This document shows positions 30,809 to 63,979 of a DNA stretch of 64,000 nt, piece after piece (the first letter of the stretch is position 1; every line of letters begins with the position of its first letter). The notes beneath the pieces were generated by a model. The model was not told the origin of the DNA. It searched no databases and worked only from the letters and a program-made list of their open reading frames with translations. The stretch lies in the sequence record NC_017969.1. One strand, 5' to 3'. Position numbers and translations under genes: made by a program. The stretch comes from Escherichia phage vB_EcoS_AKFV33.

Positions 30809-31219
30809 ATGACTACTCCAACTCAGTGGACTGATGAACTGTTCGAAAAAATGTCTTCCGAATACGTTGCTCGTATGGAGCAATTCCCAGAGGATGAACG
30901 TCCGGGTGTTAGCATGGAAATTGTTAGCGAAATTGCCCAGGAAAATGGTGTAACTCCGAACGGTTTTCGTATGAAGCTGACTAAAGCAGGTTTGTATATC
31001 AAGAAAGCTGCTGGCTCTGCTTCTAAATCTAGCGCATCTACTGGAGAAAAAGCTTCCGGTGGTTCTCGTACCTCCAAAGCCCAAGCTCACGCCGATCTTC
31101 GCTCAGCATTCTCTGATGCTGGCCTAGCACCAGATTTTCTGGATGATGCAATTATCGACAAACTGACCGGTAAAGCGGCTGCTCATCTGGCAGAAGCAAT
31201 CCGAGCTATCACTAAGTAA
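30809..31219 (+). CDS. hypothetical protein (136 aa), host-like codon usage
   Basis: strong preference for GCT/CTG/CGT/GAA/AAA codons. Confidence 0.55.
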   Translation: MTTPTQWTDELFEKMSSEYVARMEQFPEDERPGVSMEIVSEIAQENGVTPNGFRMKLTKAGLYIKKAAGSASKSSASTGEKASGGSRTSKAQAHADLRSAFSDAGLAPDFLDDAIIDKLTGKAAAHLAEAIRAITK

Positions 31220-48123: not shown

Positions 48124-49797
48124 TTACTTCTGTACCATTAGGTTGACCAGCTCTCTGAGTTCAGCTAATTCAGCTTTCACCTCAGCCAACTCCCTATCCT
48201 GCTCCTGTACTACTGCCACGATATCTGCTAGTATCGCACGATCGTTCAGGTTGAGCATTCCAGACATGCTACCGGAAAACGCGTAAATCTCATCCGCTTC
48301 TTTAGCTTCCTGAGCAATAAATCCTCGATCTTTACGCCCATCTGATAGCCATTCAAACTCACGCGCAATAAGGTGGTTAATACGGTCGCGGGGGGTGTTA
48401 CCTTCCGTATTGGTGATGTCTGTGATCTTGTCTTTTAGGCGACGATCTGAACCGCCAGGTTGGATAAGGCCTAAATTAGTGTCGATACATGAATTTTCCC
48501 ATTTAAACGCCCAATATTTATTACCGCCTACGGCTCTAGTAATATTTAGTTGTACGGCTCTAAATTGTGTACTACCTTCACGTATGCCACCAAATTCCCA
48601 TCTATCATCATACCAATGACCACGAATAATATTTACGTAGGTATTACCTTCGCTACTAGGAGTAACATTGAAAAACTCGATGGCGTTGGGCTCTCCAGTA
48701 TTACCTACATAGAAACCACCTAGCCCTGGAACCGTTACCGCACCACCTGAGCTAACAGACATTACCTCCCTAGACGTACCTTCTTGTCCTTTCACTTCAA
48801 GCGCAGAATAAAAATCTGTCCCAAAACGGATCTTGGTACGCAATTGTGAGACGTATGCTTCCGCACCTGCAATATTGTACACAGATCGCACAGCGCCGCC
48901 ATATGCCGTTACGCCGCTTGCGGGTTCGGTTGCATCGCCATTAATGACACTCCATGATGTATTTGCTGCAATAAATCCACCGGACGCACGGATTACCCAC
49001 ACACCGACAAAGTTGCGCGTAAGGATTTCATCAGTGGATGCGCCATAAATCGGACTTGAAATTGAAGCATTGAAGTCACAGGTGTTATAACGTCCAGAAA
49101 GAGCTGTACTTCCTGGTGGGATTCCGTCACCTCTTCCGTCAGGGAAAGCATTATTGCTTGCATTAAAACAACCACCTGTTTGACCTAATACTTGGCCGTA
49201 GGTTTGAGAGGCATAAGTGGTGAAAAAACCTGTAATATTAGGCGCAGCGGATTCGAACAGTTGCCCATTTGCACCACTATTCCCACCATCTCCACGGCCA
49301 TAAAGAGCACGTATTGATCCCTCCTGCACCCCATTCTTATCTGGAACACGAAAGGTTGTTGTCCCATCCCCAGATGAGTACTTACCACGCTGAAATTTAT
49401 CCGCTAACCATACGGAATCCTCTATAACACCAACCATTTGAGCGTATGCCCAAAGCTCCGGCCAGTCAGCCCTGTTAAGAAGCTGCCCATCAGAAACTAC
49501 TTCATAAGGTTGAATATACGCACGGCTATCGCGAAGGTGGAAATCACCAACACCGTAATTCATAACACCATTCATAGTGGGACCGACTGTACCGGTGTTA
49601 ATCTTATTCTCTACCCAACGTTTAGTTGCGGCATCATAGTCCCCAACAGGATCTCCCGCAAGAGGGGTGGACCCAATAGGACGCACATTTAACCATGCTG
49701 CTGCACGGTCTGCAAGATCGGATAAATTGTTGTTTTTATCCATCTTTTCGTCTTTAAGTTTTGTAATATCCTGGGGGATATTAGTATAAGTAGTCAT
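48124..49797 (-). CDS. L-shaped tail fibre protein B-like, C-terminal intramolecular chaperone (S74-type)
   Basis: C-terminal ...RINHLIAREFEWLSDGRKDRGFIAQEAKE... then coiled-coil tail; GAGGTG RBS. Confidence 0.65.
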   Translation of the reverse strand: MTTYTNIPQDITKLKDEKMDKNNNLSDLADRAAAWLNVRPIGSTPLAGDPVGDYDAATKRWVENKINTGTVGPTMNGVMNYGVGDFHLRDSRAYIQPYEVVSDGQLLNRADWPELWAYAQMVGVIEDSVWLADKFQRGKYSSGDGTTTFRVPDKNGVQEGSIRALYGRGDGGNSGANGQLFESAAPNITGFFTTYASQTYGQVLGQTGGCFNASNNAFPDGRGDGIPPGSTALSGRYNTCDFNASISSPIYGASTDEILTRNFVGVWVIRASGGFIAANTSWSVINGDATEPASGVTAYGGAVRSVYNIAGAEAYVSQLRTKIRFGTDFYSALEVKGQEGTSREVMSVSSGGAVTVPGLGGFYVGNTGEPNAIEFFNVTPSSEGNTYVNIIRGHWYDDRWEFGGIREGSTQFRAVQLNITRAVGGNKYWAFKWENSCIDTNLGLIQPGGSDRRLKDKITDITNTEGNTPRDRINHLIAREFEWLSDGRKDRGFIAQEAKEADEIYAFSGSMSGMLNLNDRAILADIVAVVQEQDRELAEVKAELAELRELVNLMVQK

Positions 49798-58484: not shown

Positions 58485-61400
58485 TTAAGAATTTCCTAAT
58501 GTTTTCAGACTAGCACCGTTCTCATTCAGAGCTAATTCTACTGCGTCTCTCAGAGCACCACTATTACTAGAGGCAAACTCTCTAAAACTTGCAGCATCCA
58601 TAGCACTAATATTCAGGATGATAGGTCTTCCTGAAGTTGAGTTAGACGAGGTTTTTAGCTCATCATTAGGTGTAGCTTTCATAGGAACCATAGGGGTAAC
58701 TACTTCTGTACCATGCTCACCCATTTGATAGCTAACCCCTGGATACATATTACCCCCCTCAGCACGAGGAACGAAAGAGTTGGCACTACCTATACCTTGA
58801 TCGCCACGAATATAAGATAGTTCACCTGCATTAGCAGACATGGACACATCTATATTCTTCTGACGCTCTCCTAAGGTTAAGTAACTAGTTGTATCCGCCC
58901 CAGAATCCGCAATACTTGACATACTAGATGCAGAGGATGCCTGAGCAAGAGCTAATGCACCTGCCAAACCTGCCGCTACCATCAGAGGGATAGAGAACGG
59001 GTATGGTACAGCTGTTGCTGCCTGCATAACTGCTACTGCAGTTTGGATGATAATCTGCTTCTTAGCTGCATCTTGTTGAATCTTCAGCTTTTCAGCTTCC
59101 AACTTCTTCAACTTAGCTTTAGATGCTTCTGATTTACCATCTCGTTTCTGCTCTGCTGCAATAGCCTGATCAATCGCACTAACCTGTTGACTAGTACTAT
59201 ATTGAATCATAGAGGCTACAGTCTGCATACCTGCTGCGATCGTGGAAGTAGTGTCTAAAGACCCCATAGAGAACTGAATCATAGCATTGGTTAAATTACC
59301 CATGCTTTGAGCTACAGCAGTTGCTTCGGAATTTAACTCAGATAGTTTAGAAATTGCCTGATCATAAGAAGCCATTCTATTTCCCATATCAGCAAAATCT
59401 TTATCTTCTCCAGATAGTCCAGTTGTAGGAGTATACACAGCACCTAAAGAAGATCCAACAGAAGCTTGCATCTCCGCATTTCTCTGTGCCCTTAAACCTG
59501 CTAGTTGTGCCCTAGTTTCAGCTATCTTTTTATTATACTCCGCTTGTGCCGCAGCATTACCTAATGTTTTCTGCTTTAAGTCTTCATATAATTTTAGCTG
59601 TTCCTGTAAGCGCTCCGCATTTCCCATTAGTGGTTTAGCAGTAAATTGTCTTTGCTGTTCTTCCTCTCTACCAGCAGCCATTGAAGCAATCTGATCTTGG
59701 CGGAATTTCCAGATTTCACGTTCAATTTGGGCTTGAGCACGTCTAGACTGTTCAGCCTCTTTCTGTTTATCAGCTTGTTTTGTATACCATTCGTACTTCT
59801 CCTTTTCAATGGTCAATTCAAGATTTAACTGTGCTAGACGATACTGAGTATCTGTCATAGTACGGTTATTTAAGAGAGCTATCTCACGATCTACACCCAG
59901 GATTTTATCTGTATAATCCTTAACCTTCTTCTGAGCCTCCATACCCTGATTAGTAAGTTTAAGTTTCTCCAGCTGAATTTTTTCAATTTCTTTCTCAACA
60001 GCTTTATTTCCCTGATTAGTTTGAAGTACACGGCGTAAAGCAGCTTCTTGCTCTTCTAACTGTTGGAGTTCTAAACGCCTACCAGCTTCCTGTGCTTTTT
60101 CTTTATCTTTAGTTTGGTTGTATACATCAGCTATCTTCTGTTGAACTGCTAACTGGTTCTTAGTCTCATTACCAGTTAGTTTAACGTACTCAGATAAGGC
60201 CTGAGACGCAGTTTTCATTTCAGACAGAGTATTATAGCCTAGGTTAAGATTTTTAACGTATTCATCAGCACTCTTACCAGTACCTAGAGATAGAGATTCT
60301 ATGTTTTTTATAGCATCTGCTAAAGTAGCACTAGTTTTAGCAGCAGTATCTGTATTCTGAGCAACGTTCTGTATATCATTAGCTAAGTCACTAGCAGTTT
60401 TCTTAGTCTGATTGTATGCTTTCTGCTGCTCAGTTAGTCCTTTTAATACAGTAGAGTTAAAATCATATACAGCACCAGGATCAGTAGTATCTCTCTGTAG
60501 ATTAATTTGCTTCTGAAACTCTGGACTAGCCTTTGCAGCAGCAGCCCCGGCAGCTTGATACGCTGATTTCCAAGCATTGAGGTTCTCTGTAGAATCCTCT
60601 ACTTCTTTACCAAGTCTAGTTACTTGTAAACCCATAGCTGCAGTTTCTGCTACAAATTGCTTATTGGCCTCCGAAGCACCTGCTGCTGCAAGACCAACAG
60701 GAATACCTTCACCAACTTGACGTATAGCTAGTTTTGTATAGAAATCTGCTTGTTCCATTCGTTTATCGAACTCAGATTTTAGCTTATTACGCTTATCAAG
60801 AGATTCCTTATACATATCTAGAGCTTTATTATAGCCTTCTTCAGAAGCAGCTAAACTTAAAGCAACAGCACCAACGTTGGTAGGGTCTATCTGTCTATTA
60901 GTTTTTTCTTGGGCCCTAGCTGCCTCAGCAGATATAGAAGCCTGAGATGTATAAAATACTGTGTTGATAGCATCAATTACTGGCCCTAAATACTTAGCAG
61001 CAGCTTGTTGTATTTTTCTTAGTGCAGCATCTGCATTAGCAGCAAATTGCTCCCATGGAGTTGCACGTAGTACTTCATCTAGGTAGCCAAACCGCTTAGT
61101 AGATTCAGCAATTACCGCGTTAGCGTATGCTTGTTGTTTCTGGAAAGTGGTAAGACTATTAACATTATATGTTATACCTGTGTTTGCAGCATTTAACTGT
61201 TTAACATAATCAGCGTATGCGTCATTAAGACGGATGGTGACACCAAGTTCATCCAGAAGTTCGATTTCTTGTTTAGATACGCCCTTAATTACACGGTTAA
61301 GTGCATCAGTCATATCAACGCCAAGAACAGCAGCCGCACGACGAGCTACTAAACCAAATTTATTAAGTTGTTCAGCATCAAATCCATAAGCAGATGCTGA

Positions 61401-62165
61401 AGATGCCTGTCTCATTGCTTCCTCAAAAGAAATAGCATATCCAGCAGCTTCTTGTAGTGATCTAGCAAGGGTCTGAACAGGAGTACCTGTCTGAGTACCT
61501 ACTATAACACCAAATTTTTCTAGACGATTCAGCTGATCACCTAGTTTAAGTTGTTCGAATGCAGATTGCAAAACGAAGATGTTGGAAGCAAGAGCTGCGT
61601 ACATAATAGGTAAACTACCACCGATCTTAGCCATTGCCGCAAAATCACGAGTTGCACCACGTGCTGAACCAGAAGTATTACCAATAGCTCTAGAAGCTCT
61701 ACCAGCGGCACCAGCAGTGTCATTAAAACCTCTAGCTGTACCACCTAATGCTCTATTAGTATCATATAGTCTATCCTGTACTTTTTCTGTTGCAGCTGCA
61801 ACATCATTACCCATTGTTTTAACAGATCTAGAAACTCCATCGAATCCAATTTCTAGTTTATCTGTTACTTCAATAAGCTGGATAGCCAGGTAGTCTAGCT
61901 TATCACCAATACCATCAATGGATTTAGTGATACCAGCCATACCCCTACTAGCTTGCATTTTAGTAAGACTTTTCGCTGCTCTGTCTGCTGCCCTCTCAAT
62001 GGAATAAAGAGTTCTGGGCATTTTACCTAACTGCTCATTTGTCAGTTCGGAAGCAGCAGCAGCATTTTCCAACGCATCAGATACGTTTTCAATAGACTTT
62101 GCAGTACGAGTTGCCCCCTTCTGTTTAACGTCTATTAGTAATTCTCGTATTAGCTTATCAGTCAT
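58485..62165 (-). CDS. tail tape measure protein (T5 pb2-like)
   Basis: 1226 aa, Ala/Gln-rich coiled-coil core, hydrophobic segment AVAVMQAATAVPYPFSIPLMVAAGLAGALALA. Confidence 0.85.
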   Translation of the reverse strand: MTDKLIRELLIDVKQKGATRTAKSIENVSDALENAAAASELTNEQLGKMPRTLYSIERAADRAAKSLTKMQASRGMAGITKSIDGIGDKLDYLAIQLIEVTDKLEIGFDGVSRSVKTMGNDVAAATEKVQDRLYDTNRALGGTARGFNDTAGAAGRASRAIGNTSGSARGATRDFAAMAKIGGSLPIMYAALASNIFVLQSAFEQLKLGDQLNRLEKFGVIVGTQTGTPVQTLARSLQEAAGYAISFEEAMRQASSASAYGFDAEQLNKFGLVARRAAAVLGVDMTDALNRVIKGVSKQEIELLDELGVTIRLNDAYADYVKQLNAANTGITYNVNSLTTFQKQQAYANAVIAESTKRFGYLDEVLRATPWEQFAANADAALRKIQQAAAKYLGPVIDAINTVFYTSQASISAEAARAQEKTNRQIDPTNVGAVALSLAASEEGYNKALDMYKESLDKRNKLKSEFDKRMEQADFYTKLAIRQVGEGIPVGLAAAGASEANKQFVAETAAMGLQVTRLGKEVEDSTENLNAWKSAYQAAGAAAAKASPEFQKQINLQRDTTDPGAVYDFNSTVLKGLTEQQKAYNQTKKTASDLANDIQNVAQNTDTAAKTSATLADAIKNIESLSLGTGKSADEYVKNLNLGYNTLSEMKTASQALSEYVKLTGNETKNQLAVQQKIADVYNQTKDKEKAQEAGRRLELQQLEEQEAALRRVLQTNQGNKAVEKEIEKIQLEKLKLTNQGMEAQKKVKDYTDKILGVDREIALLNNRTMTDTQYRLAQLNLELTIEKEKYEWYTKQADKQKEAEQSRRAQAQIEREIWKFRQDQIASMAAGREEEQQRQFTAKPLMGNAERLQEQLKLYEDLKQKTLGNAAAQAEYNKKIAETRAQLAGLRAQRNAEMQASVGSSLGAVYTPTTGLSGEDKDFADMGNRMASYDQAISKLSELNSEATAVAQSMGNLTNAMIQFSMGSLDTTSTIAAGMQTVASMIQYSTSQQVSAIDQAIAAEQKRDGKSEASKAKLKKLEAEKLKIQQDAAKKQIIIQTAVAVMQAATAVPYPFSIPLMVAAGLAGALALAQASSASSMSSIADSGADTTSYLTLGERQKNIDVSMSANAGELSYIRGDQGIGSANSFVPRAEGGNMYPGVSYQMGEHGTEVVTPMVPMKATPNDELKTSSNSTSGRPIILNISAMDAASFREFASSNSGALRDAVELALNENGASLKTLGNS

Positions 62166-62182: not shown

Positions 62183-62213
62183 AAAAAAGGCTCTGGGCAA
62201 ATCACCCAGAGCC
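62183..62213 (-). terminator. rho-independent terminator between chaperone ORF and tape measure gene
   Basis: GGCTCTGGG-TGATTTG-CCCAGAGCC then TTTTTT on minus strand. Confidence 0.6.
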
Positions 62214-62248: not shown

Positions 62249-62617
62249 TTATCGTGCACGAGATCTAGCATGTGGCTTAACGTTAGGAATTCTTCCGTTT
62301 TGCGGTTTATGCTTCTCAGCACGTTTACGTGCAGCATCTACAGCTTTAGCATCAAATATATTGATAATGTGTAGAACAAATTCTTTCTCTATAGGATCAG
62401 TAATCCCATAAATATCGAATAAAACACCTAGAGCAGCTTTGTCTTTGCCTATAAATATAGGAAAGTCACCCGGTATGAAACAGTCAACTAGACTGTTATA
62501 GATATTCATACTAATAGCTACAATAGGTGGAAAGTCTTCAAGTTCAACAGGCATAGCCTTAGGGTCGGGTTCTATACCCATTGACTCACAAAGTATTAAA
62601 TATTGTTGTTTAGTCAT
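62249..62617 (-). CDS. tail assembly chaperone-like protein (possible frameshift product)
   Basis: directly upstream of tape measure; frame open 30 codons upstream into previous ORF; no obvious RBS. Confidence 0.4.
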   Translation of the reverse strand: MTKQQYLILCESMGIEPDPKAMPVELEDFPPIVAISMNIYNSLVDCFIPGDFPIFIGKDKAALGVLFDIYGITDPIEKEFVLHIINIFDAKAVDAARKRAEKHKPQNGRIPNVKPHARSRAR

Positions 62618-62678
62618 TTTAGATGCTGAGCTTTTAATACACTTATCTGCAAAATCAGCAACAGCATCTAGTAGTTCT

Positions 62679-63083
62679 TTACGCTTTTGGGCTACGAAAA
62701 GTATCTAAGTGGAACACTGTCTGGTTGATCCAAGAATCAAACGCAGCAGAGTTCTGCATAAGCATTACAGCATTATCACGACTAAAGGGAACTTCAGTAG
62801 CGGGATCAGCGTCTGTTTCAATCAGCATCAGTTTTTCAACATCACCAACAGTTAAGCCAGTCCAGCCTTTAATAGCTGCGTCAATAAATGCTTCAATGAA
62901 CTTATCATCATCCTGTACCTGAACCAAAGTACCATTAACCCATTCATCGCGTTTAGCAGAAGAAATAACACGTTTAGAGGTAGCACGAGACATATAGTTA
63001 AGTTCTAGTTTAAAATTCGGCATACCTGGGTAGGAAAGAGTAATAGTACGAGTATCAAGAGTAATATCTTTTAAATTAATCAT
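62679..63083 (-). CDS. tail assembly chaperone-like protein
   Basis: position upstream of tape measure. Confidence 0.5.
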   Translation of the reverse strand: MINLKDITLDTRTITLSYPGMPNFKLELNYMSRATSKRVISSAKRDEWVNGTLVQVQDDDKFIEAFIDAAIKGWTGLTVGDVEKLMLIETDADPATEVPFSRDNAVMLMQNSAAFDSWINQTVFHLDTFRSPKA

Positions 63084-63979
63084 TTTTTAATTTCTCCAAA
63101 GAAATCTATTCTCACTGGGTCTGAAGAAGCAGTAGGTATAATATCCCACTCAACTCTATACACATCTGAGAACTCTAGGCGTTTTGTAATACGTGCTGAA
63201 GGAAAATCTATAGAAATATTATTATTTCTTATATTTAAAGGTACATCTGTCTCCGGTTCGATATTGTAAACCATATCTCCTGCAAAACGTTTTAGGTAAT
63301 ATAGAGAAATGGTTGCCGAAGCATTCATTTCATTTACATAAGCTCTTTTATTATTATAAATTTTATTTATATCAAAAACACTCTTATCCTCTCTCCAGGA
63401 GCACTGCTGTTGGAAAGACAAAGAGGCAGAAATAAGACCGGGTAAGATGCTGCCATTAGTAGAAGCTATTACTGGGCTGTAAGACATTACTTCACCCTGT
63501 ATAATAGAAGAAGCTTCTCTATAGGTAGATACTTCTGAGAATTTCCCAGACTCAATACCAACATTAAGAATTGGTATATTCTTATCTAAAGAAAAATCTA
63601 CTGTAGATACATAGCAGTTTTCAAAATATACACAGTTATTATCTTTGTTTACTATATAGATATTGAACATAATAGGTTCAATATTACTACTATATAGTGG
63701 GAGTAAGAAAGTATTACCTTTTCTATCAAAACCTAACCATTCAAAGAAGTTAGCTTCAGTAAGAGTATTACTAAAATTTACTGCTAGAGAGATAGAAGAG
63801 GGGGTTTGAGCATTTATAATAGAGTCTGCATAGTTAGTTCTACGATGAACAGTCCTACGAAGAGTCTTGAATTCCTCGTAGGAAGTCTGTATATCATAGT
63901 TTGATAGGGCATCAAAATGAAATGCCCTACCATCATACTCAACTATAACTTTTGACTCTCTCATTAGAGAGTAGTACAT
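63080..63979 (-). CDS. tail collar/minor tail protein (T5 p140-like, 299 aa)
   Basis: size and position. Confidence 0.45.
   Translation of the reverse strand: MYYSLMRESKVIVEYDGRAFHFDALSNYDIQTSYEEFKTLRRTVHRRTNYADSIINAQTPSSISLAVNFSNTLTEANFFEWLGFDRKGNTFLLPLYSSNIEPIMFNIYIVNKDNNCVYFENCYVSTVDFSLDKNIPILNVGIESGKFSEVSTYREASSIIQGEVMSYSPVIASTNGSILPGLISASLSFQQQCSWREDKSVFDINKIYNNKRAYVNEMNASATISLYYLKRFAGDMVYNIEPETDVPLNIRNNNISIDFPSARITKRLEFSDVYRVEWDIIPTASSDPVRIDFFGEIKK

Follow-up and report, generated by a model that had tools for sequence, protein, structure and literature searches.

In phage lambda and other long-tailed phages the tail assembly chaperones are encoded by two open reading frames (ORFs) directly 5' of the tape-measure gene, the second of which lacks a translation start of its own and is reached by a -1 frameshift on a heptamer of the form X_XXY_YYZ (G_GGA_AAG in lambda), giving a short product, gpG, and a rarer, C-terminally extended fusion with the same N-terminus, gpGT (Levin et al. 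1993; Xu, Hendrix & Duda 2004; reviewed in PMC5009743). Systems of this type need both products at a fixed ratio (about 30:1 for lambda G and GT; PMC5009743); the two proteins interact with the tape-measure and tube proteins and do not become part of the virion. Here we describe the corresponding genes, referred to as ORF A and ORF B, of Escherichia phage vB_EcoS_AKFV33 (NC_017969.1), of which a stretch of 64,000 nucleotides was analyzed (the window). A and B are a tail assembly chaperone pair of the gpG/gpGT type, and comparison of their sequences with those of relatives leads us to conclude that they are very probably read as a single 277-amino acid fusion through a +1 shift at the sequence UUU_CGU. 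This would be the known G/GT strategy employed with an unusual direction, and with a motif known to date only from eukaryotic viruses.

In influenza PA-X the +1 frameshift site has been mapped by experiment to UUU_CGU (UCC_UUU_CGU; PMC3498833), and UUU_CGN is the proposed +1 motif of the amalgaviruses (PMC5052127). As in PA-X and the plant amalgaviruses, the identical motif is found in frame in AKFV33 with the +1 ORF open across it, tRNA-Phe is proposed to slip in the P site from UUU to UUC, there is no evident stimulatory RNA structure, and a low efficiency is expected; PA-X frameshifting itself occurs at a very low level and has no evident stimulator. The phage site differs from PA-X in being presented to the ribosomes of a bacterial rather than a eukaryotic host and in the unrelated nature of the products, and whereas CGU is rare in birds and mammals, which is thought to provide the stimulus in PA-X, it is the main arginine codon here. 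Well-supported programmed +1 frameshifts in bacteria are few, with prfB being the main example, and no general +1 motif is recognized (PMC10274946). The Escherichia coli prfB site (release factor 2; CUU_UGA) also involves a P-site +1 slip with re-pairing one base forward (CUU to UUU), but the phage site does not conform to the prfB type, having GATACT before UUU and the sense codon CGU in the A site.

Chaperone recoding is not bound to the -1 direction, and among tailed phages the structural or assembly genes that reach a +1 or -2 frame include Mu gp41/42 (-2), Listeria phage tsh and cps and SPP1 gp17.1* (+1), and haloarchaeal HSTV-2 ('very likely +1') (PMC3498833, PMC5009743). As far as these two papers go, all of these use other shift sites and none is stated to use UUU_CGN, and none has been shown to be conserved over a family-level clade as is the site described here. 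A search of the literature found no report of UUU_CGN frameshifting in bacteria or phages, and no description of a chaperone frameshift in T5 or the Demerecviridae.

All of the features of the AKFV33 locus lie on the minus strand. ORF A (62679-63083) encodes the gpG-like 0-frame product of 134 amino acids, a homologue of T5p139/T5.143, and terminates with TAA at 62681-62679. ORF B (62249-62617) encodes 122 amino acids from an ATG at 62617, is a homologue of T5p138/T5.142, and would constitute the T-like C-terminal domain of the fusion. An earlier note on this sequence had stated that B lies in the +1 frame of A, that its frame overlaps the last eight codons of A and is open for 30 codons upstream of the B ATG, and that this ATG has no Shine-Dalgarno sequence. 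The frame relationship was borne out, since 62681 minus 62617 is 64 and 64 mod 3 is 1, so that B is offset from A by +1, or equivalently by -2. The overlap is also as described, with both frames open over 26 nucleotides (62679-62704) that correspond to the last eight sense codons of A plus its stop; a TAG in the +1 frame at 62705-62707, evident in both the frame translation and the junction table, sets the upstream limit for any shift that reaches B. The B frame is indeed open upstream of its ATG, extending from 62704 to 62618 without any ATG, GTG, or TTG, but for 29 sense codons rather than 30 (ILFVAQKRKELLDAVADFADKCIKSSASK). No GGAG, GAGG, or AGGA is present within the 25 nucleotides 5' of the B ATG (GTGTATTAAAAGCTCAGCATCTAAAATG), in agreement with the note, and no promoter-like site was found between A and B. 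On the window alone this pattern is unremarkable and its significance comes only from comparison with relatives: five of the 69 window ORFs of at least 100 amino acids have an open, start-free leader of at least 29 codons, the probability of 29 stop-free codons in the window is approximately 0.13, and the tape-measure gene also has a weak Shine-Dalgarno sequence, so that a weak one at B is not unusual.

The proposed +1 site, UUU_CGU, is located at 62694-62699, with the Phe codon at 62699-62697 and the Arg codon at 62696-62694, and the proposed codon for re-pairing of tRNA-Phe is the UUC at 62698-62696. The predicted frameshift product thus spans 62249-63083 as join(63083..62697, 62695..62249), with the junction ...HLDTF|VAQKRK...; the predicted peptide spanning the fusion junction is ...WINQTVFHLDTFVAQK and the predicted tryptic junction peptide is DNAVMLMQNSAAFDSWINQTVFHLDTFVAQK. 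The linker that would be read only after the shift (62618-62695) comprises 26 codons, VAQKRKELLDAVADFADKCIKSSASK, most of which (62618-62678) are annotated as an intergenic spacer.

The window derives from a T5-like phage (Tequintavirus), and matches to this region, with identities of 85-97%, are found in more than 400 genomes of T5-like phages. A more diverse set of relatives was assembled from 12 annotated Demerecviridae genomes, including T5, DT571/2, Sw2, smaug, Klebsiella phage PWKp9S, Serratia phage Kamaji, Proteus phage 2, and pVp-1, Cilsick, valsw3, and D411 from four Vibrio groups, together with 118 IMG/VR contigs that were added using peptide patterns in A or B. Because these patterns lie away from the junction, the slip motif did not select the loci. 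The B-based scan of viral contigs used a four-sequence alignment, and a search with a hidden Markov model of A identified this gene in 129 loci, representing 108 distinct junction regions.

In all 12 of the annotated Demerecviridae the B frame is +1 relative to A and stays open into the end of A, and this +1 layout is present in a total of 105 loci (94 distinct) from Demerecviridae and metagenomic phages with protein identities of about 30%. The earlier note had suggested a +1 or -2 shift in place of the usual -1, and recommended that the overlap be searched for a slippery motif. B is +1 in all of these loci, and every one of the 105 overlaps contains an in-frame TTT_CGN (93 with CGT, seven with CGA, five with CGC, and none with CGG); when the nucleotide sequences of 13 lineages with about 30% protein identity were aligned, no run other than TTTCG was invariant. 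With the Phe-Arg pair held fixed at the protein level, local codon usage gives a chance of approximately 3.5e-9 that all 12 lineages would have TTT followed by CGN, although this is optimistic as the lineages are related. In Vibrio phage D411 and one other locus (L038) the 0 frame reads TTT CGT TAA, with the stop directly after the motif, and the +1 frame opens two to three codons before it, leaving four to five codons in which a shift could occur; these short overlaps therefore pin the shift to the TTT CGT codons. Of the 94 distinct loci, 69 have GUA as the codon with which +1 reading begins, and in nine of ten distant loci that were checked a long frame downstream of B stays open up to the end of the examined sequence. 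The G of CGN is invariant and the third position is only U, C, or A, which could reflect decoding by tRNA-Arg(ICG) or, alternatively, a constraint from both reading frames.

Two other candidate sites within the AKFV33 overlap were considered and rejected. The only in-frame heptamer of the kind used by the G/GT class, C_CCA_AAA at 62685-62691, is a decoy that plays no part in the proposed mechanism, because the -1 frame ends after six codons (PKSVKNY*) and because the heptamer is polymorphic, the CCA being TCA in T5, Sw2, DT571/2, and others. The sequence AAA_G (62687-62684) is a possible +1 site in the T5-like phages, but D411, L038, and the Vibrio phages either lack it or have it past the stop of the 0 frame; it was therefore rejected as the conserved site.

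The remaining 24 loci (14 distinct) belong to the same protein family and have B in the -1 frame of A. Their overlaps contain classic slippery heptamers, either G_GGA_AAC (11 loci) or A_AAU_UUU (A_AAT_TTT in the DNA; seven loci), and the other six have the non-canonical sequence AGT AAT TTT. These motifs lie at, or adjoin, the same conserved Phe column (...[DEG]-[NTS]-F), and in one of these loci (L048) the -1 tail, which is the one translated, is clearly homologous to B. In a rough neighbour-joining tree without support values the -1 loci group together in a single cluster, with +1 lineages around it. The use of known -1 signals at the same junction in one branch of the family argues that UUU_CGN would be their functional equivalent.

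Additional evidence comes from the 61 nucleotides between the A stop and the B ATG, which were compared among 29 distinct T5-like sequences. There are 21 variable sites, distributed 5/1/15 by +1-frame codon position (binomial P = 4e-4), compared to 18/12/74 in B proper, and the changes are nearly all synonymous (Leu as CTA, TTA, CTT, or CTC, and Ser as AGC, TCC, or TCT). As judged from these alignments, the spacer is under protein-coding selection in the B frame. The deduced fusions are colinear in an alignment of 14 lineages, with linkers of similar length. The initiating Met of T5 B is replaced by Ile, Val, Leu, or Phe in other lineages, and among the 94 distinct loci the first ATG, GTG, or TTG of the +1 frame occurs anywhere from -30 to +30 codons relative to the site. 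Since the spacer is coding, potential starts are not conserved, and there is no promoter between A and B, the spacer is presumably translated by ribosomes that started on A. Orthologues with a spacer and a ribosome-binding site had been named in the earlier note as evidence that would speak against a fusion; the opposite is seen, with a coding-constrained spacer and a start codon that is not conserved.

In the mechanism that we propose, most ribosomes would translate A and stop at the UAA at 62681-62679, releasing the 134-amino acid product. A minority would slip with tRNA-Phe (anticodon GAA) in the P site on the UUU at 62699-62697 and CGU in the A site, the tRNA stepping one base forward onto the UUC at 62698-62696 such that a G-U wobble is exchanged for a G-C pair. 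Decoding would then resume in the +1 frame at the GUA at 62695-62693 and proceed across the annotated spacer and ORF B, to give the gpGT-like fusion of 277 amino acids, in which the junction reads ...HLDTF-VAQKRK.... On the lambda model, the tape-measure protein pb2 may be coated by A and by the A portion of the fusion while the B domain recruits the tail tube protein, with neither product being present in the virion. We infer the slip event, its P-site +1 mode, its low efficiency, and the roles of the two domains, and we hold to this precise mode of slipping with somewhat less confidence than to the fusion itself. The efficiency may be very low, but if lambda is a guide this would suffice for a chaperone fusion. 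A broader suggestion, which we consider a serious one but stop just short of favoring, is that UUU_CGN is intrinsically prone to +1 slippage on both bacterial and eukaryotic ribosomes, without a need for a rare codon, a stop, a Shine-Dalgarno sequence, or RNA structure, and is a fixed signal of an old chaperone family. The window also contains 11 phage tRNA genes clustered at 666-5873 on the minus strand; among them are tRNA-Phe(GAA) (2209-2283), which is the tRNA that would slip in our model, along with tRNA-Glu(UUC) and tRNA-Arg(UCU), and none of the 11 reads CGN.

Several observations weigh against a programmed shift at UUU_CGU. There is no conserved downstream structure to stimulate it, with RNAalifold predicting zero consensus pairs across 13 lineages, single-sequence structure z-scores of -1.6 to +0.7 around the site, and no Rfam match in this region; nor is there a Shine-Dalgarno-like stimulator upstream, where the sequence CACTTAGATACT has no GGAGG-like run. 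CGU is the commonest Arg codon of the phage, at 2.09% of codons in the window ORFs compared to 2.37% for GUA, and is a major codon in E. coli; a slow A-site or 'hungry codon' stimulus is thus not evident. In-frame TTT_CGN is also present in six other window ORFs of at least 100 amino acids (at 30965, 31705, and 46297 on the plus strand, and at 49353, 52479, and 54974 on the minus strand), where the +1 frames stop after 1-54 codons. In ORFs of this size TTT_CGN accounts for seven of 29 Phe-Arg pairs where 11 are expected (P = 0.08), and avoidance is not significant; it appears so in ORFs of at least 150 amino acids (3 of 25, P = 0.004), but this significance is lost when those of at least 100 amino acids are used. 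The loci compared are phylogenetically related, making the probabilities quoted here optimistic, and the B ATG is invariant within Tequintavirus and Epseptimavirus (29/29 distinct T5-like sequences). Lastly, the genome note for Klebsiella phage Sugarland reports that this phage, like T5, has no predicted frameshift signal (PMC6256483).

Local hairpins at the slip site were noted in two of the relatives. In both, Vibrio phage pVp-1 (AACTTTCG...CGAAAGTT, 8/8 pairs) and Serratia phage Kamaji (TCATTTCG...CGTAATGA, 7/8 pairs), the site forms the 5' arm. Neither is kept in other lineages, and they were discounted as a conserved element.

The simplest alternative to a fusion is that A and B are independent genes, with B initiated at the ATG at 62617, either weakly or by coupling to A, and with the frame upstream of it having no function. 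The invariance of this ATG in all 29 distinct T5-like sequences is as expected of such a gene, as is the deposition of nearly all database entries as B alone with 108-133 amino acids; moreover, an open, start-free run of 29 codons is not rare in the window, other late genes also have weak ribosome-binding sites, and B expressed alone from a plasmid is both stable and active (PMC13056530). We nonetheless consider this explanation to be very unlikely. A functionless leader would not show variation that is codon-position-specific and mostly synonymous in the B frame, nor would a true start be replaced by I, V, L, or F elsewhere with the first possible start so scattered, and B has neither a Shine-Dalgarno sequence nor a promoter. 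Independence of the two genes also leaves the +1 relation together with TTT_CGN in 105 of 105 loci, and the -1 relatives with classic slippery heptamers at the same place, without a reason. Independent initiation of B as an extra, minor route alongside the frameshift is a different matter; B made alone from its ATG is soluble and is an active Schlafen trigger (PMC13056530), which tells in favor of some independent synthesis and to that extent against expression through the shift alone, and we regard such a route as unlikely though by no means far-fetched. Production of B without any fusion by termination and reinitiation after the A UAA might be entertained given that A lies near B on a shared transcript and is in turn apparently coupled to the p140 homologue through ATGA, but the ATG is 62 nucleotides past the A stop, the stop-to-start distance is variable, with 1 to 19 sense codons in the 0-frame tail after TTT, and both the coding constraint from the A stop to the ATG and the invariant TTT_CGN would go unexplained; we view this as extremely improbable.

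If the frame is changed, it could also be changed in other ways than by a +1 slip of the ribosome. A -2 shift like that of phage Mu gp41/42 would give ...DTF-F-VAQ... in a product of 278 amino acids, and cannot be told from +1 by the ORF layout; it has a precedent among chaperone genes (Xu et al. 2004, as cited in PMC3498833), and the four Ts in the T5-like phages (ACU_UUU_C) would allow partial re-pairing. However, the codon that would be reached two bases upstream varies among lineages (CUU, ACU, AUU, CCU, or CAU), which makes a -2 slip unlikely, whereas the C needed for +1 re-pairing of UUU to UUC is invariant in 105/105 loci. We therefore judge a -2 shift to be highly improbable, and the choice between +1 and -2 that the earlier note had left open is settled by this comparison in favor of +1, with the site placed at 62699-62694. 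A change of frame at the level of RNA or DNA, through slippage of RNA polymerase on the T run or an error in sequencing or assembly, can appeal to the short run of Ts at the site (TTTT in the T5-like phages), but in most lineages this run is only 3 nucleotides (ACC TTT CG, AAC TTT CG). That is far below the length for transcriptional slippage, which is thus unlikely, and more than 100 genomes that were assembled independently of one another share this frame break; we consider the chances of this explanation to be practically negligible. A +1 ribosomal frameshift at UUU_CGU remains the reading that we prefer.

The protein families are consistent with a two-part product. In PHROG phrog_313 ('tail assembly chaperone', 258 positions) A matches positions 12-139 and B matches positions 170-258, and full-length members of this family therefore contain both parts; B also matches phrog_3914. 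A has the tail-assembly-chaperone fold (HK97 2ob9 and YqbN 3klu). The structure of the fusion was modelled using that of phage Sw2, which is 90% identical to the window fusion, with an alignment in which the linker is covered by one sequence only. In this model the last helix of A continues unbroken over the junction (helix 113-150) and is followed by a folded B domain, and a comparison to predicted viral structures gave whole-length alignments to the chaperones of Loki, CcrColossus, Seurat, Scapp, and K1H (230-270 amino acids). A Pfam scan of the fusion gave no match, using a copy without PF27119, the family that is precomputed for A homologues. Separate protein searches with A and B gave matches; the 277-amino acid fusion as a query gave none, despite the presence in the collection of the 90%-identical Sw2 protein (AXY85088.1).

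At most two database records carry an annotation of the fusion, and we found no published description or test of it. An exact-sequence look-up identified the protein of Salmonella phage Sw2 (AXY85088.1 / YP_009812293.1), named 'Tape Measure Chaperone Frameshift Product', with the same join and the same junction, ...HLDTF|VAQKRK...; its cluster has 40 members, and no other one is of fusion length. The Sw2 annotation and the later Sugarland genome note presumably come from the same centre. Salmonella phage Shivani has a 'tape measure chaperone' of 277 amino acids (UniProt A0A0A7TXI3) that is 88% identical to the Sw2 fusion, and the Shivani paper does not mention a frameshift. B homologues are otherwise deposited almost entirely as B alone, and a study of Schlafen sensing treats T5.142 as a stand-alone protein (PMC13056530).

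If UUU_CGN is indeed an intrinsically slip-prone signal, as in the broader suggestion above, then it would serve the Demerecviridae, including the model phage T5, as well as many uncultured aquatic phages, with one clade having swapped to -1 heptamers, and evolution would be able to replace one direction of programmed frameshifting by the other without loss of the protein products. During infection the Schlafen trigger T5.142 would then be present for the most part as the C-terminal domain of a 277-amino acid fusion of low abundance, and its real form and abundance affect the interpretation of Schlafen sensing (PMC13056530). A conserved +1 site would end the apparent exception of T5 as having chaperone genes without a frameshift signal (PMC6256483), and provides a precise junction. 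The 94 distinct natural UUU_CGN sites provide a system for the study of +1 slippage in bacteria in which the -1 sister clade can act as an internal control, and they allow the universality of the motif shared with influenza virus and the amalgaviruses to be tested. ORF B is deposited as a stand-alone gene of 108-133 amino acids in nearly all of about 900 related genomes, and the motif could be useful to gene callers and frameshift predictors.

The order of genes at the locus is the p140 homologue, ORF A, ORF B, a terminator-like hairpin, and the pb2 homologue, which together with the chaperone fold of A supports the proposal in the earlier note that A and B are a G/GT-like pair 5' of the tape-measure gene. 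The p140 homologue (63080-63979) is a minor tail or tail-tube-like protein of 299 amino acids, and its TGA stop overlaps the ATG of ORF A as ATGA (63080-63083), suggesting that the two are translationally coupled. The hairpin (62189-62213) lies between the B stop and the start of the tape-measure gene and has 11 pairs, seven of them G-C, followed by TTTTTT within a T-run extending to about 62180; it could either attenuate transcription or stabilise the upstream mRNA. The pb2 homologue (58485-62165) is the tape-measure and pore-forming tail tip protein, with 1226 amino acids.

The region between B and pb2 seems to tolerate insertions. In T5 st0 (AY692264; 1870-2402 of the extracted locus) it contains an extra ORF, T5p137, 'similar to RB49p240', that has no counterpart at this position in the window, and in another group of relatives (L054, 1965-2654) an ORF of 230 amino acids is inserted between B and the tape-measure gene. 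The best nucleotide match to a 1101-nucleotide query from the window is in Salmonella phage SP3 (MG387042.1, 93070-94405), where it aligns in two pieces spanning 1336 nucleotides, implying an insertion of about 235 nucleotides somewhere in the region of A, B, and the start of the tape-measure gene. Four T5-like A/B sequences (OR848485.1, P0016, P0003, and P0004) are filed under the names 'Listeria phage LM 4-14-1', 'Enterococcus faecalis', 'Citrobacter portucalensis', and 'Salmonella enterica', and these are probably the result of contamination or mislabelling.

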